From: Faecousia sp.
GTDB lineage: Bacteria > Bacillota > Clostridia > Oscillospirales > Oscillospiraceae
Assembly (NCBI GenBank): GCA_045612705.1
Contig: JAZKZN010000028.1
Span: 1,287 to 65,286 of the forward strand
Direction of reading: 5' to 3'
DNA: 64,000 nt
The position numbers and the translations under genes were made by a program. Of the stretch, positions 2,933 to 18,938 are shown in pieces; the first letter of the stretch is position 1; the number at the start of each line of letters is the position of its first letter. The notes beneath the pieces are model-generated. The model was not told the DNA's origin. It worked only from the letters and a program-made list of their open reading frames with translations, and searched no databases.

Positions 2933-2975
2933 ACTCACTTATCTGCGCTTAGGATGATAAAAGGTACGTAGTTTG

Positions 2976-3007
2976 AAAAGAGGCGGTCCGGGGACCGCCT
3001 CTTTTTT
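2976..3007. terminator. Bidirectional intrinsic terminator
   Basis: aaaagaggcggtc-cggg-gaccgcctctttt. Confidence 0.85.
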
Positions 3008-3017
3008 GTTTGGGAAA

Positions 3018-4826
3018 TTAGTATGCCTTGTACATAGGACCGTAGGCAGCGCAAGCACGGTAGTCTGCGCCTTCCTTGTCCATACCGAAGGCATTCCAGC
3101 AAGCAGGACGGAAGATGTCCTCCTCGGGAACGTTGTGCATGCATACAGGGATACGCAGCATAGAGCACAGGGTGATCAGGTCAGCGCCGATGTGACCATA
3201 GGAGATAGCGCCGTGGTTAGCACCCCAGTTGTTCATGACCTCGTAAGCGGTCTTGAAGGGGGAGCCATCCTTGCCGTCGCAGCGAGGAGCAAACCAAGTG
3301 CAGGGCCAGGTGGGGTCGGTACGCATCATCAGAGTCTTGGTGACATCGTCGGGCAGCTGCACAGTCCAGCCTTCTGCGATCTGCAGAACGGGGCCCAGAC
3401 CCTTAACCAGATTCAGACGGATCATGGTAGCGGGCATATCAGCACGGGTGGTGAAGGAGGAGGAGAATCCGCCGCCACGGAAGTAGCCGTTGTCGGCTGC
3501 GGGCCAGGTGGTAGCATCGCACATCTTCTTGATATCCTCGTCGGTGACTTCCCACCACTTCTTCATAATGCCGTTGCCGTTCTCATCCTTGCATTCGCCG
3601 CAAGCGTCCAGAGCAGTAGCGCCGGAGTTGATCAGGTGAATGAAGCCGCCATTTTCCTTAGCCTTGCCTTCGACCTTGTAGCCGGAAGCACGCTCACAAG
3701 CCTCGGGAGACCAGTAAGTACGCACGTCGGAGAACATTTGAGCGCGGTTGGTCAGAAGCTTCATGAACAGCATGCCCAGACCGTTCAGAACGTCGTTCTC
3801 GGTAGCCAGGATGTAGGGCTCGCGAGCACCGTTGTGGTCGAAGGTGGAGTTCAGCAGAGCTTCAGGGAAGTCGCAGTTGGGATAGAAGTCAGTCCACTGA
3901 CGCTGACCCTGGAAGCCGCCGGCGATAGCGTTGTGGCCAACCATCTCTTCCTCGCAACCTGCGGGCAGGTTGGGGTTGCCGTTGAACATATCCTTGATGA
4001 TGCAGTACATCTTAGCCAGGAAGTCCCACTGCTCAGCCTTCTTCTCGTCGGAGGTCTTAACGAAGTCGGGGTTCTTGTCCCAGCCCTCCTTGCAGTTTTC
4101 CTTGATCCAAGCCTTGGCACGAGCAACTTCTTCGTGATCGTAGATGCCTTCGGACATTCGACGGATGATTTCTACCTCGTCAACGGATTCAACACGCATG
4201 CCCAGGTAGGACTCGATGAATGCGGGGTCGATAATAGAACCGCCGATACCCATGCAGATGGAGCCGATCTGCAGGTAGGACTTGCCACGCATAGTTGCAA
4301 CAGCAACAGCGGCGCGGGCGAAGCGCAGCAGCTTCTCCTGTACGTCAGCGGGAATGTTGGTGACCTCGTCCAGATTCTGAACGTCGTGACCATAGATGCC
4401 GAAAGCGGGCAGACCCTTCTGTGCGTGGCTAGCCAGAACGGAAGCCAGGTACACAGCGCCGGGACGCTCAGTGCCGTTGAAGCCCCATACGCCCTTGATG
4501 GTCTGGGGATCCATATCCATAGTTTCGGAGCCGTAGCACCAGCAGGGAGTGACAGTCAGGGTGATGTCAACGCCATTCTTCTTGAACTTTTCAGCGCAGG
4601 CAGCAGCTTCTGCTACGCGGCCGATGGTGGTGTCAGCGATGATGACCTTAACGGGCTCGCCGTTGGAGTACTGCAGATTTTCTTCGAACAGCTTCTTAGC
4701 GGCCTGAGCCATTGCCATGGTCTGGTCTTCCAGGCTCTCACGAACCTTCAGAGGTCCGCGGCGGCCGTCGATGGTGGGGCGAATACCGATTACGGGGTAA
4801 TCACCGACGTATCTGTTTTTTGCCAT
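3018..4826 (-). CDS. fucI: L-fucose (D-arabinose) isomerase
   Basis: [47 protein letters not shown]; 602 aa. Confidence 0.96.
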
Positions 4827-4919
4827 TGTAATTTCCTCCTAATTTCTCGCCGCAAAACGCGGGCATAGTTTACAATATCATATAACGCGTGCGCGCTACA
4901 TACGAAAGCATAGTCTCTT

Positions 4920-10094: not shown

Positions 10095-10123
10095 TTGAAT
10101 TGTGTGGTAAATCGTAGTATAAT
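10095..10123 (+). promoter_or_regulatory. sigmaA promoter for the kinase-SDR-PHP-reductase operon
   Basis: TTGAAT-N17-TATAAT. Confidence 0.6.
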
Positions 10124-15011: not shown

Positions 15012-15040
15012 CAAGCGCCCCGGTTTCCCCGGGGCGCTTG
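15012..15040 (+). terminator. GC-rich hairpin, probable terminator
   Basis: caagcgccccgg-tttcc-ccggggcgcttg. Confidence 0.65.
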
Positions 15041-15092
15041 CAGTAAAATGACAAAAATCCCTTTATAAAAGAGAAAGGTTGTGTTTTGGCAA

Positions 15093-17156
15093 ATGGATGC
15101 AAAGTATGAGGCTTTATTTACCCCCTGGAAAGTGGGCAATGTAGAGATCAAGAACAGAATTGTCCTGTGCCCTATGGGCGGTACTTCTCTGTTCGGCTGG
15201 TTCGAGCTGACGGGCTGTAAGTTTGACAAGGAGGCGGCAAAGTTCTTCCTGGAACGGGCGCAGAACAATGTGGGTCTGATTATTCCCGGCATTGCCCCTC
15301 TGCGGGATACCTTCTGGGGCAAGTGGCTGTGGCAGAATCCTAAGATGTTTGAGGATCTGAAGGAGTTTATGGAGGAGATCCATAAGACAGGCGCAAAGCT
15401 GTTTGTACAGCTTACTGCAGGTATGGGCCGCAGCTGGGCGATCACCGAGCTGGTAGCGCCTCTGCACAAGAATAAGTTCACCCGCGCCCTGATCAAGCCG
15501 ATTCTGGACACCAGCCACGAGCTGGCAAGTCCCTCTCCGCTGCCCTCCCGCTGGGATCCGGAGATCACCACTCCCGAAATGACTCTGGAGCAGATCCACG
15601 AGATTATTGAGGCCTTTGCCAAGACCGCAAAGCTCTGCAAGGATGCAGGCGTGGACGGCGTGGAGGTACACGCAGTACACGAAGGCTATCTGCTGGATCA
15701 GTTCACTATGGAGTGGACCAATAAGCGTACAGACCAGTACGGCGGCTCTTTCGAAAACCGTTATCGTTTCCCTGTGGAGATCGTACAGGCCATCAAGGCA
15801 GCCTGCGGCCAGGATTTCCCTGTTTCCCTGCGGTATTCCGTAGAGTCCAAGGTCAAGGGCTTCCGGGAAGGCGCTGTCCCTGGTGAAAAATATACCGAGG
15901 TCGGCCGTAATATGGCTGAGTCCGAGAAGGCTGCCAAGTACCTGCAGGATGCAGGCTATGATATGCTGAATGCGGACAACGGTACTTACGATTCCTGGTA
16001 CTGGGCACATCCGCCCATGTATATGCCCCAGAACTGCAACCTGGAAGATGTGGCGCATATTAAGAAGTTTGTGGACATCCCCGTGGTTTGCGCCGGTCGT
16101 ATGGAGCCGGAGGTGGGCGCCCAGGCAGTGGCAGAAGGTCGGATCGACGGCGTGGGTATCGCCCGTCAGTTCCTGGCTGATCCTCAGTGGATCACCAAGC
16201 TGCTGGAGGAGCGTCTGGAGGATATTCGCCCCTGCATTTGCTGCCATTCCGGCTGCTTCAACTTCTCATCCTCCAAGGGTCACGCCAACACCCAGGACTT
16301 GACCGATACCATGGGTCTGGCTCGCTGCGCTCTGAATCCTCAGACTATGCAGTCCAAGAAATATCATATTGAAAAGGCAAAGAAGCAGAAGAACATCGCT
16401 GTGATCGGCGGCGGTATCGGCGGTATGGAGACCGCTCTTGTCTGCGCAAAGCGCGGCCACAAGGTGACCCTCTACGAAAAGAGCGGCGAGCTGGGCGGCG
16501 TATTCATCGCTGCGGCAGCGCCCTCTTTCAAGGAAAAGGACAGAGATCTGATCACCTGGTATCGCCGTGAACTGACCAAGTATCCCGCCATCGAAGTGAA
16601 GCTGAACACAGAGGTCACCGACATCGCCGCTCTGGGCGCTGATGAGGTGGTTGTCGCCACCGGTTCCAAGGCAAACCGCATCCCCGTTCCCGGCGCGGAC
16701 AAGGCTATCCAGGCCGTGGACTTCCTGCTGGGCAAGGGTGAGGTTGGCCAGAATGTGGTGATCGTAGGCGGCGGTCTGACCGGCTGTGAGATTGCATACG
16801 AGCTGTACCTGCAGGGCAAGAATCCCACTATCGTGGAAATGATGGACGATCTGATCTGCACCCCCGGCATCTGCCTGGCAAATACCAGCTTCCTCCGGGA
16901 CTTCTTCAAGGCCAATAATGTGCCCGTTTATCTGGAGCATGGCGTGGCAGCCATCGAAGACGGCACTGTGCTGATCAAGGATAAGGTCGGCGCAAAGCAG
17001 CGCATTGCCGCTGATAGCGTGATCCTCTCTGTTGGCTATAAACCTCAGCCCGTTGCTCAGGCCGGCAAGCATGTCCACTTGGTGGGCGACTGCAGCAAGG
17101 TAGGCAATCTTCGTACTGTCATCTGGCAGGCGTGGGATGTGGCCATGAAACTGTAA
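15093..17156 (+). CDS. 2-enoate reductase-like NADH:flavin oxidoreductase (OYE barrel, 4Fe-4S, FAD domain)
   Basis: HAVHEGYLLDQF, NKRTDQYGGSFENR, CICCHSGC...C, two GGG dinucleotide-binding motifs. Confidence 0.88.
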   Translation: MDAKYEALFTPWKVGNVEIKNRIVLCPMGGTSLFGWFELTGCKFDKEAAKFFLERAQNNVGLIIPGIAPLRDTFWGKWLWQNPKMFEDLKEFMEEIHKTGAKLFVQLTAGMGRSWAITELVAPLHKNKFTRALIKPILDTSHELASPSPLPSRWDPEITTPEMTLEQIHEIIEAFAKTAKLCKDAGVDGVEVHAVHEGYLLDQFTMEWTNKRTDQYGGSFENRYRFPVEIVQAIKAACGQDFPVSLRYSVESKVKGFREGAVPGEKYTEVGRNMAESEKAAKYLQDAGYDMLNADNGTYDSWYWAHPPMYMPQNCNLEDVAHIKKFVDIPVVCAGRMEPEVGAQAVAEGRIDGVGIARQFLADPQWITKLLEERLEDIRPCICCHSGCFNFSSSKGHANTQDLTDTMGLARCALNPQTMQSKKYHIEKAKKQKNIAVIGGGIGGMETALVCAKRGHKVTLYEKSGELGGVFIAAAAPSFKEKDRDLITWYRRELTKYPAIEVKLNTEVTDIAALGADEVVVATGSKANRIPVPGADKAIQAVDFLLGKGEVGQNVVIVGGGLTGCEIAYELYLQGKNPTIVEMMDDLICTPGICLANTSFLRDFFKANNVPVYLEHGVAAIEDGTVLIKDKVGAKQRIAADSVILSVGYKPQPVAQAGKHVHLVGDCSKVGNLRTVIWQAWDVAMKL

Positions 17157-17174
17157 TGTAAAAGGAGAAAAGCC

Positions 17175-18455
17175 ATGATTTTAACACCTGAACAGCAAAG
17201 TATTCTGGACGGCGCCAAGGGTGAGATCCAGGCAAAGGTCATGAAGACTCTGGTGATGTACGGCGAGGCTTTCGGCGCTGATAAGATGGTCCCTGTCACA
17301 TCTGAATATAACCATTTGGTGACTTCTTTCGGTCTGAAGATGATGGGCCCCGTGTTTGACCTGATGCAGCAGCTGATTGACAGCGGCGCGATCTCTCAGC
17401 AGAAGTTCTCCGTTGACCCCCGTCCTTTGGATAAAAATGTCCCGGCCAACTTCCTGCAGAACTTCATTTTCAACAACTTTATGTACTCCAAGCAGGCTGA
17501 CTACGAAAAGCAGCTGCAGGCTCTGGGCCTTGTGAATGAGGATGCTTTTACCTGCGCTTGCTATTTCGACCAGGTAGGCAACACCCCCAAGAAGGGTGAT
17601 GTTCTCAGCTGGGCAGAGTCCTCTGCGGTGGTGTATGCCAACTCCGTGCTGGGCGCAAGATGCAACCGCAATTCCGGCATTATGGACATTATGGGCTCTA
17701 TCGCCGGTTTCGTTCCTTCCTTCGGCCTGCTGACCGACGAAGGCAGAAAGGCTACCTGGATCGTGAAGGTACAGACCACCAAGAAGCCGGAGGCGCAGCT
17801 GCTGGGCTCTGCTATCGGCATGAAGGTGATGGAGGATGTGCCTTACATCACCGGTCTCAGCAAGTGGATCGGCACAGAGCTGAATGAAACCGCCTGCGCT
17901 TATCTGAAGGACTTTGGCGCAGCCACCGCCTCCAATGGCGCTGTGGGTCTGTACCATGTGGAAAACCTGACTCCCGAAGCCGTGGAGCAGGGTGCAGCCT
18001 TGATCGCCGAGGGCGCAAAGGAATACATCATTGATGACGCTGAACTGGAGCGGGTGAAAAACGAGTACCCCGTGATCTGGAAGAACAAGGATGCCAAGCC
18101 CAAGCTGTGCTTTGTGGGTTGCCCCCATCTGTCTCTGCAGCAGCTGAAGGACTGGACCGATCGGGTAGAAGAGGGCCTGAAGGCTTCTGGCCTCAAGAAG
18201 GTGGCCATCCCCACTGTATTTACCACCGCTCCTGCAGTAAAGAAGGAGTTTGAAGCCACAGAATATGCCGCCCGCCTGGAAAAGATCGGTGTCATTCTCT
18301 CCTACATCTGTCCGCTGATGTATATGAATAACCCCCTGGCTGGCAAGATGCCCGTCATTACCTGTTCCAACAAGCTGCGGACCTACACCACCGCCCGTTA
18401 TTACACGGAGGACGAAATCCTTCAGCAAATCACCAAAGGAGGCGCTGTGAAATGA
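17175..18455 (+). CDS. Aconitase X catalytic (large) subunit, DUF521
   Basis: FTCACY, WAESSAVVYANSVLGARCNR, GLYHVENLTPEA, GCPHLS. Confidence 0.88.
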   Translation: MILTPEQQSILDGAKGEIQAKVMKTLVMYGEAFGADKMVPVTSEYNHLVTSFGLKMMGPVFDLMQQLIDSGAISQQKFSVDPRPLDKNVPANFLQNFIFNNFMYSKQADYEKQLQALGLVNEDAFTCACYFDQVGNTPKKGDVLSWAESSAVVYANSVLGARCNRNSGIMDIMGSIAGFVPSFGLLTDEGRKATWIVKVQTTKKPEAQLLGSAIGMKVMEDVPYITGLSKWIGTELNETACAYLKDFGAATASNGAVGLYHVENLTPEAVEQGAALIAEGAKEYIIDDAELERVKNEYPVIWKNKDAKPKLCFVGCPHLSLQQLKDWTDRVEEGLKASGLKKVAIPTVFTTAPAVKKEFEATEYAARLEKIGVILSYICPLMYMNNPLAGKMPVITCSNKLRTYTTARYYTEDEILQQITKGGAVK

Positions 18456-18895
18456 GAGAGTTCAAAGGCCGTATTGTCACTCCCGGCACTGTGACCGCAC
18501 CTGCCGTGGTCAGCCACGGAGGACTGAACACCCTGGCATCCTTCCAGAAGGCGCTGCAGTTCGGCGACAAGAAAGCCACCTGCGGTGACCAGAACAACCC
18601 CGATCTGTACGGCAAGGAGATGGCCGGCAAGGCTCTGTGCCTGCCTCAGACCATTGGCTCCACTACCGGCGGTATGGTGCTGTACTGCGCCTGCGCCATG
18701 GAGCGTCAGCCCGCTTGTATGCTCTTCAGTAATCCTATCGATTCCCTGGCCGCTGCCGGTTCGATCCTGGCCTCTGTGTGGCTGGAAGGCAGCAAAATGC
18801 CCGTTGTGGACTGCCTGGGCGAGGAGTTCCTGAACTATGTGCAGGACGGTATGATGATCACCATTCGGGAAGACGGCACTGTGTGCGTCGATTGA
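18452..18895 (+). CDS. Aconitase X swivel (small) subunit, DUF126
   Basis: LYGKEMAGKALCLP, GSTTG; directly follows the DUF521 gene. Confidence 0.85.
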   Translation: MREFKGRIVTPGTVTAPAVVSHGGLNTLASFQKALQFGDKKATCGDQNNPDLYGKEMAGKALCLPQTIGSTTGGMVLYCACAMERQPACMLFSNPIDSLAAAGSILASVWLEGSKMPVVDCLGEEFLNYVQDGMMITIREDGTVCVD

Positions 18896-18904
18896 TTCCA
18901 CAAC

Positions 18905-18938
18905 AAAAAACACCCTCAAGAGTTCTTGAGGGTGTTTT
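18905..18938. terminator. Bidirectional terminator
   Basis: aaaacaccctcaaga-gt-tcttgagggtgtttt. Confidence 0.8.

Follow-up and report, generated by a model that had tools for sequence, protein, structure and literature searches.

In a 64,000-nt stretch of the genome of Faecousia sp. (GCA_045612705.1, contig JAZKZN010000028.1, forward strand 1,287-65,286; hereafter the window), an iron-sulfur flavoenzyme of the ene-reductase type is encoded directly upstream of the large and small subunits of an aconitase X (AcnX; AcnXL and AcnXS). The three genes recur together in gut and rumen Clostridia, and this AcnX appears to belong to neither characterised type. The best explanation, which we consider probable, is that the trio is an autonomous, horizontally mobile metabolic cassette that turns a β-hydroxy acid first into a 2-enoate and from there into a saturated acid, independently of coenzyme A (CoA). 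The genes are:

15093-17156, + strand: reductase, 687 amino acids (aa); Pfam Oxidored_FMN (8e-59) and Pyr_redox_2 (1.9e-32)
17175-18455, + strand: AcnX large (catalytic) subunit, DUF521, 426 aa; Pfam PF04412 (1.3e-92)
18452-18895, + strand: AcnX small (swivel) subunit, DUF126, 147 aa; Pfam AcnX_swivel_put PF01989 (1.6e-11)

The reductase gene starts with ATG, and an in-frame GTG also lies at 15081. A gap of 18 nt separates it from AcnXL, and AcnXL and AcnXS share 4 nt (ATGA), an arrangement by which AcnXS is predicted to be translationally coupled to AcnXL.

Conservation and distribution of the trio

Records holding one genome per species contain at least 591 relatives. The best 80 loci, obtained by a search with an eight-sequence alignment in which all relatives returned were at least 75% identical, were kept; all 80 come from metagenome-assembled genomes (MAGs) of the gut or rumen. 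Their hosts include Faecousia, other Oscillospiraceae, Acutalibacteraceae, Lachnospiraceae, Christensenellaceae, Ruminococcus and Subdoligranulum. Linkage was counted in the 64 informative loci, all from different species, whose upstream sequence extends over at least 2.1 kb. A reductase of the type found in the window (type A, 60-90% identity) lies directly upstream of AcnXL in 62 of the 64, at a distance of 14-294 nt (993 nt in one locus), and AcnXS follows AcnXL in every case.

The association extends beyond gene order. Six of the seven genomes with unlinked AcnX genes encode a type-A reductase elsewhere (59-71% identity); the seventh is L049, described below. Two of the six (G540 and G776, loci L110 and L111) are complete genomes of Clostridia, at 0.9 and 1.1 Mb very small, and that both genes are kept there suggests that the route matters even for strongly reduced genomes. 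Reductase orthologues (60% identity or more) in a sample of 41 genomes of relatives are confined to AcnX-positive genomes, with one exception that is cut by a contig end. Moreover, AcnX clade members at 54-72% identity have a partner from a second reductase lineage, whose enzymes measure about 730-750 aa and are approximately 30% identical to type A. This pairing occurs in either gene order, the reductase sometimes lying downstream of the AcnX genes.

Loci with the second reductase lineage: L101, L102, L107-L109, L112, L116, L117

Since co-occurrence is kept in six of seven unlinked cases and the second lineage is found in both orders, the association between AcnX and reductase has survived unlinking, rearrangement and replacement of the partner. 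The first-pass annotation of this DNA had called for a neighbourhood analysis and held that a pairing which is not conserved would count against its proposal; the pairing proves to be conserved, and that objection does not arise.

The distribution is patchy: AcnX is present in 6 of 24 genomes in a genus-level sample, 28 of 399 Clostridia (about 7%) and 6 of 401 genomes in a phylum-level sample. In a tree built by a quick method, the window AcnX falls inside a clade with 99-100% support (SH-aLRT), far from the Thermococcus-type representative, and Lachnospiraceae sequences are nested among those of Oscillospiraceae. Patchiness and nesting together indicate horizontal spread between families. 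The flanks of the trio differ from locus to locus (lanthionine synthetase, GGDEF protein, serine hydroxymethyltransferase, ParAB, GH31, tRNA synthetase and others), and among the loci compared only that of the nearest Faecousia relative (L021) shares the flank seen in the window. Carriers are bacteria of the human, ruminant and chicken gut, with genomes down to 0.9 Mb. A protein atlas yielded nothing beyond generic 'oxidoreductase' clusters.

An AcnX of neither characterised type

The separate, adjacent DUF521 and DUF126 genes are those of a two-subunit, type II AcnX. The best solved relative of AcnXL is the archaeal TkAcnX (7cnr_A, 2.3e-41, about 34% identity), and AcnXS matches its small subunit TK1248 (7cnr_B) at 9.3e-5. 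Cys127, Cys316 and Cys379 of AcnXL align with the Tk cluster ligands Cys110, Cys283 and Cys342, Glu148-Ser149-Ser150 with Glu129-Ser130-Ser131, and Lys400/Tyr404 with Lys361/Tyr365. Ser70 of AcnXS, in the loop Thr67-Ile-Gly-Ser70-Thr71-Thr72-Gly-Gly, aligns with the catalytic serine of both TkAcnX and AtAcnX, the hydroxyproline dehydratase of Agrobacterium. The set of three cysteines for a [4Fe-4S] or [3Fe-4S] cluster, Glu-Ser-Ser, Lys/Tyr and small-subunit serine (residue list of PMC8184944) is complete. These AcnXL residues, together with Thr50-Ser51-Phe52-Gly53 and Asp81, are invariant in 100 clade members, as is the AcnXS loop in 95.

More distant AcnX homologues, about 40% identical (L113-L115, in G508, G477 and G442), keep the cysteines, have lost Glu148, Lys400 and Tyr404, and have no adjacent reductase; they may catalyse another reaction or none at all.

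Only two AcnX activities are known, and subclasses IIc-IIf, which lack the landmark residue of either, are listed as uncharacterised (PMC8184944). The window AcnXL fits the description of such an uncharacterised type-II subclass. At the positions that bind the phosphate of mevalonate-5-phosphate in the archaeal enzyme (the Gly48-Val49-Ser50 backbone, Asn53 and Asn79), it has instead Ser51-Phe52-Gly53, a Met56 that is exchanged for Val or Ala in relatives, and the invariant Asp81; after Asp81 some 12 residues are inserted, and this insertion is conserved. A UbiD/UbiX partner is likewise lacking: none is encoded in the window, and PF01977 was not found in the assembly to which it belongs (G000, 86.7% complete), in a search whose control was positive for 9 of 14 reference genomes. 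As to the dehydratase of cis-3-hydroxy-L-proline, the model NF051439 gives 135.6 bits against a cut-off of 700. The equivalents of Asp203 and Ile206 of AtAcnX are the invariant Thr50 and Gly53, that of Thr72 is kept, and that of Trp35 could not be aligned. The context of an Lhp cluster is missing as well, with no proline-racemase-family or pyrroline-2-carboxylate (Pyr2C) reductase gene in the window and no PF05544 match in the assembly. Because the landmark residues for both mevalonate-5-phosphate and hydroxyproline are replaced, this AcnX is predicted to be neither of the characterised types. In the comparison with these types that had been advised at first reading, the tree places this AcnX far from the Thermococcus-type representative and the landmark residues set it apart from both types, and the absence of proline racemase, UbiD and UbiX remarked on then holds for the neighbourhood and, for the UbiD and proline-racemase families, in the assembly search.

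Hydroxyproline dehydration is the only AcnX activity known from bacteria (PMC5144071, PMC8184944), and a route in which AcnX turns a 3-hydroxyproline isomer into pyrroline-2-carboxylate (or the 2,3-enamine), which the flavoenzyme reduces to proline, deserves consideration. Small-subunit Thr72 matches the Thr72 that contacts the ring nitrogen in AtAcnX (PMC8184944), and peptidases or amidases (M20, M18, conjugated bile acid hydrolase) are occasional neighbours. One distant locus (L103:1805-12368, 53% identity) comprises a sigma-54/PAS activator, reductase, AcnXL and AcnXS, with a convergent proline-racemase-family gene and, 5 kb upstream, an ornithine cyclodeaminase/μ-crystallin gene. It is the sole locus with a proline-racemase-family neighbour and the sole one examined with a hydroxyproline-like context. 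In spite of this, the route is improbable in view of the equivalog score, the Thr50/Gly53 replacement and the three-cysteine pattern, which is of the archaeal [4Fe-4S] type; nor was a proline-racemase-family gene found in this genome, whose assembly is 86.7% complete. An iron-sulfur flavoenzyme would also be needless, known Pyr2C reductases being simple NAD(P)H enzymes.

The partner flavoenzyme

The reductase combines the flavin mononucleotide (FMN) barrel of the old yellow enzymes (OYEs), a [4Fe-4S] motif of the form Cys-x2-Cys-x3-Cys...Cys and, at its C terminus, an FAD/NAD(P)H domain. The cysteine cluster (CICCHSGC...C) lies at residues 381-412 and the GGGxxG dinucleotide folds at 439 and 559. 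This architecture assigns it to the FMN/[4Fe-4S]/FAD-NAD(P)H flavoenzymes of the 2-enoate reductase / FadH / BaiCD / BilR superfamily. Its best solved relatives, at about 204 bits over full-length alignments, are FadH (1ps9) and naphthoyl-CoA reductase (6qkg). None of the NCBIfam equivalog cut-offs is reached (BilR-long, 365.5 of 750; BaiCD, the second-best model, 349.8 of 825).

The HAVHEGY motif, already noticed in the first-pass annotation, occupies residues 193-199. His193, His196, Glu197, Gly198, Tyr199 and Tyr299 are invariant in 78 partner reductases, and H-x-x-H-E-G-Y is invariant in both partner lineages. The OYE pair His193-x-x-His196 is thus joined with a FadH-type Glu-Gly-Tyr; FadH has Met and Ser at the two histidine positions. 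Such a pair, typical of OYEs, is expected to bind a carboxylate or carbonyl. Together with Tyr199 it provides indirect evidence for NADH-dependent reduction of free 2-enoates (EC 1.3.1.31).

Proposed pathway

AcnXL and AcnXS would form a [4Fe-4S] dehydratase whose cluster would engage the substrate hydroxyl as a Lewis acid. Ser70 of the small subunit would take the α-proton, and water would be lost from a β-hydroxy carboxylic acid to give a 2-enoate. Within the flavoenzyme, electrons would then pass from NAD(P)H through FAD and the [4Fe-4S] cluster to FMN, which would deliver a hydride to Cβ; Tyr199 would protonate Cα, with the carboxylate held by His193/His196, and the product would be a saturated acid. 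The net reaction would be a CoA-independent reductive β-dehydroxylation consuming one NAD(P)H and no ATP. Cells would likely use it as an electron sink, or for detoxifying or converting an acid derived from the diet, the host or microbes.

Both characterised AcnX enzymes dehydrate β-hydroxy acids to 2-enoates (PMC8184944). Among the roughly 100 annotated neighbouring genes of the fetched loci, no CoA ligase or CoA transferase was found. 2-Enoates are the substrate class of 2-enoate reductases. The proposed mechanism fits because the product class of the first step is the substrate class of the second, because these activating enzymes are missing from the neighbourhood and because the histidine pair is of the carboxylate-binding kind. 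What the sequences show is the linkage of the genes, their co-occurrence, the conservation of catalytic residues and the lack of both known substrate signatures; from these we infer the order of reactions, a free acid as the substrate and the physiological role. Dehydration of a free hydroxy acid by AcnX followed by reduction of the enoate had been put forward in the first-pass annotation. It is supported by the conserved pairing, an AcnX of neither known type, the invariant catalytic residues and the carboxylate-type histidines.

Several points weigh against this pathway. No transporter accompanies the cassette across loci. The reading of the AcnX pocket, presented below, is built on the alignment to TkAcnX and the residue list of PMC8184944. 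In one MAG (G827, L049, 6870-11717) a TAXI-type TRAP transporter, made up of an NMT1_3 binding protein and a fused DctQM of 651 aa, stands directly upstream of AcnXL-AcnXS in the usual place of the reductase, and no reductase homologue was found in that MAG. A Bacteroidota-like clade (45% identity), sampled by a metagenome scan with P0131 as query, has no adjacent reductase on its short contigs. One operon (L078) inserts an iron-containing alcohol dehydrogenase (Fe-ADH) and a 460-aa, possibly CoA-acylating, aldehyde dehydrogenase. Finally, both best solved relatives of the reductase work on CoA thioesters.

These last two points, and the rank of BaiCD as second-best NCBIfam model, are also what favours a route in which the reductase, like FadH and the Bai enzymes, takes a thioester (of CoA or of another kind) and AcnX acts on the free acid before its activation by an unlinked ligase or transferase; the aldehyde dehydrogenase of L078 has the size of PduP/EutE. 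The route nevertheless seems unlikely, as the invariant His193-x-x-His196 pair is typical of OYEs acting on free carbonyls or carboxylates and is replaced by Met and Ser in FadH, and no locus has a CoA ligase or transferase among its annotated neighbours.

Reverse or other chemistry, in which the flavoenzyme would desaturate an acid or oxidise an amine (compare trimethylamine dehydrogenase) and AcnX would hydrate or isomerise, can be considered on the grounds that AcnX and aconitase reactions are reversible, that the reductase comes first in gene order and that its architecture includes amine dehydrogenases (matches to trimethylamine and histamine dehydrogenases). We give it little credence. 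For a fermentative anaerobe the oxidation of a saturated acid by NAD+ is thermodynamically very unfavourable, the tyrosine proton donor and histidine pair suit ene-reduction, and no electron-acceptor partner (electron transfer flavoprotein, cytochrome) is linked. Dehydration followed by reduction remains the preferred reading.

Candidate substrates

The distal part of the AcnX pocket offers some indication of the substrate tail. In the alignment, the invariant Thr50-Ser51-Phe52-Gly53 and Asp81 take the place of the phosphate loop and Asn79 of the archaeal enzyme; further pocket positions are the hydrophobic Phe52, Phe78 and Met/Leu57 and, in the small subunit, Thr72. The invariant Asp81 and Thr72, with these hydrophobic residues, argue that the pocket would disfavour a phosphorylated or polycarboxylate substrate and favour a tail that is hydrophobic, hydrogen-bond-donating or cationic. 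Conversion of citrate or aconitate to tricarballylate, or of malate to succinate, was considered and appears unlikely for a hydrophobic pocket with an invariant Asp, one that is not rich in Arg.

Three classes of substrate are consistent with a pocket of invariant Asp81, Thr72, Phe52 and Phe78 and with MarR control (see below). They are 3-hydroxy-3-arylpropionates, which would yield arylpropionates; 3-hydroxy fatty acids from N-acyl lipids, which would yield saturated fatty acids; and carnitine or 4-amino-3-hydroxybutyrate, which would yield γ-butyrobetaine or γ-aminobutyrate, respectively.

Clues from the neighbourhood are sporadic, and among the fetched loci (more than 100 in all) none recurs often enough to name a substrate. 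A conjugated bile acid hydrolase/N-terminal nucleophile amidase lies inside the operon in four loci of the Subdoligranulum/Ventricola branch. In L078 (4798-11712) a tightly packed six-gene operon encodes MarR, Fe-ADH, the 460-aa aldehyde dehydrogenase, reductase, AcnXL and AcnXS, so that the precursor in that species may be at the level of an alcohol or aldehyde. Two distant loci begin with a sigma-54/PAS activator: L103 and another that is itself preceded by genes for an aminotransferase, two M20 peptidases and an amino-acid dehydrogenase. PALP enzymes stand beside two unlinked AcnX pairs. M20/M18 peptidases and GH95 occur near the cassette in one locus each, the GH95 fucosidase directly upstream.

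Regulation by a MarR repressor

A MarR gene opens the cassette in 11 loci (L033, L041, L042, L048, L054, L055, L063, L064, L067, L070 and L078). The palindrome TTGTTGA-N4-TCAACAA, or a close variant, is present in the MarR promoter of all 11. These regulators are mutually 33-72% identical and have kept the same palindrome. It is also found, overlapping the promoter of the reductase, in about 10 loci that lack a neighbouring MarR gene (L028, L073, L040, L090, L060, L066, L088, L057, L052). With up to three mismatches allowed, it occurs in 14 of 68 upstream regions, compared with 1.2 expected from shuffles. Its presence both at MarR promoters and at reductase promoters without MarR therefore points to a dedicated MarR repressor controlling the cassette in cis and in trans, with the palindrome as its predicted operator. 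The locus of bilirubin reductase is likewise a MarR-led operon.

The palindrome was also considered as a box for Rex, the NADH-sensing regulator; this was dropped, the motif being found before every linked MarR gene and hence a MarR operator. In the Faecousia assembly no Rex-like motif lies near the trio. The closest solved MarR, C. difficile CD630_04730 (8xt8/8xta), matches at 46 bits, too remote to hint at the ligand.

In this Faecousia assembly neither an orthologue of the cassette MarR nor an operator at the trio was found. A good copy of the palindrome class (ATGTTGA-N4-TCAACAT) was observed about 1 kb past the end of the window (G000:C28:66294).

Genomic setting in the window

Two hairpins bound the trio:

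15012-15040, + strand: GC-rich hairpin between the zinc-dependent alcohol dehydrogenase (Zn-ADH) gene and the reductase gene, 12-bp stem, 5-nt loop, no U tract
18907-18938, both strands: bidirectional intrinsic terminator closing the trio (+) and the convergent asnA (-), from terminator scan and folding

The upstream hairpin (-25.9 kcal/mol, z -5.2) is more stable than all of 200 shuffles. Lacking a U tract, it probably acts as a leaky terminator or stabilises the RNA. The downstream one has a 14-bp stem with U tracts on both strands and folds at about -22 kcal/mol on either strand (z about -5), again matched by none of 200 shuffles. The picture of a three-gene unit flanked by hairpins, drawn at first reading, agrees with these values and with the gene calls and Pfam matches.

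Directly upstream of the trio lie five sugar-catabolic genes of the same strand, not remarked on at first reading: a sugar ABC transporter, followed by an FGGY kinase, a short-chain dehydrogenase/reductase (SDR), a PHP-domain protein and the Zn-ADH. It could be argued that the trio extends this fucose/rare-sugar operon and acts on a sugar-derived hydroxy acid. The gap is only 96 nt, the intervening hairpin has no U tract and no sigma-70-like promoter is predicted between it and the reductase start codon; the nearest relative, L021, has the same neighbours, and the GH95 fucosidase noted above lies next to one other cassette. However, the sugar genes are missing from the flanks of the other fetched loci, and in L021 itself a U-tract terminator and a promoter (TTGACT-17-TATACT) separate the trio from the Zn-ADH gene. 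The cassette also occurs in unrelated contexts and in genomes of 0.9-1.1 Mb. The comparative loci place the sugar genes outside the unit, and an extension of the sugar operon is very improbable.

As the trio here has no MarR or operator, and no promoter behind the U-less hairpin, it may be read through from the fucose-type cluster; expression from the predicted promoter of that cluster, at 10095-10123, is probable. To us this looks like an accident of insertion and not the sign of a shared pathway.

Elsewhere in the window, a 631-aa open reading frame at 2973-4868 (+), between a class II aldolase and a LacI regulator, has no Pfam match and is overlapped by one of 602 aa at 3018-4826 (-).

Significance

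A full-text literature search found no paper describing the pairing of AcnX with an ene-reductase. The occurrence of a second reductase lineage with AcnX, the MarR repressor with its operator and the lack of the regulator in this Faecousia are new findings. The AcnX family, with its two activities, would gain a cassette joining an unstudied AcnX subclass to an ene-reductase, that is, known kinds of enzyme in a new combination. It is conceivable, at a chance that we would put slightly below even, that the cassette holds a third AcnX activity and an undescribed CoA-free reductive β-dehydroxylation, which would explain an orphan biotransformation of β-hydroxy acids in the gut or rumen.

The subclass is abundant, both in the number of relatives and in its share of sampled Clostridia. 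The constant ene-reductase partner narrows the class of reaction enough for a focused substrate screen, and the MarR and its operator offer a second route to the substrate, since the inducer is probably either the substrate itself or the product. With the substrate identified, thousands of 'DUF521/DUF126/oxidoreductase' annotations would gain a function, and the conversion of a gut metabolite for which no enzyme is known could be explained. If the proposal is true, the cassette would be an NADH sink for hundreds of Clostridia species, including some with 1-Mb genomes.

Comparison with known systems

The closest characterised relative of the dehydratase is TkAcnX (TK1249/TK1248, PDB 7cnr/7cns; also in Aeropyrum pernix), the archaeal (R)-mevalonate-5-phosphate dehydratase of type IIb. 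It likewise has two subunits, shares the cluster cysteines, Glu-Ser-Ser, Lys/Tyr and small-subunit Ser-Thr, and converts its own β-hydroxy acid to a 2-enoate. The system described here differs in the replacement of the phosphate-binding residues, in an ene-reductase partner instead of UbiD/UbiX, in its bacterial gut hosts and in its horizontal transfer. AtAcnX belongs to the same superfamily, with the catalytic Ser, Glu and Lys and an equivalent of small-subunit Thr72. The similarity to it is weak (about 1e-13 to 1e-15 over 200 residues), the cysteine pattern is different, Thr and Gly stand in place of Asp203 and Ile206, and there is no Lhp cluster.

Clostridial 2-enoate reductases, FadH, BaiCD/BaiH and BilR share with the partner flavoenzyme the FMN TIM barrel, the four-cysteine [4Fe-4S] cluster, the FAD/NAD(P)H domain and the tyrosine proton donor of Glu-Gly-Tyr. 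The cassette enzyme is set apart from them by its sub-cut-off scores, the combination of His-x-x-His with Glu-Gly-Tyr and a dedicated AcnX partner, an arrangement that is not reported for any of them in the searchable literature.

The logic of dehydrating and then reducing is also that of the Cai pathway of E. coli (carnitine to crotonobetaine to γ-butyrobetaine) and of reverse β-oxidation, with its hydroxyacyl-CoA dehydratase and enoyl-CoA reductase. Both serve as anaerobic electron sinks, and both are functional analogies, with no homology. These pathways need CoA esters and enzymes of the crotonase and acyl-CoA-dehydrogenase folds, whereas the cassette, according to our proposal, would carry out the same two steps on the free acid.

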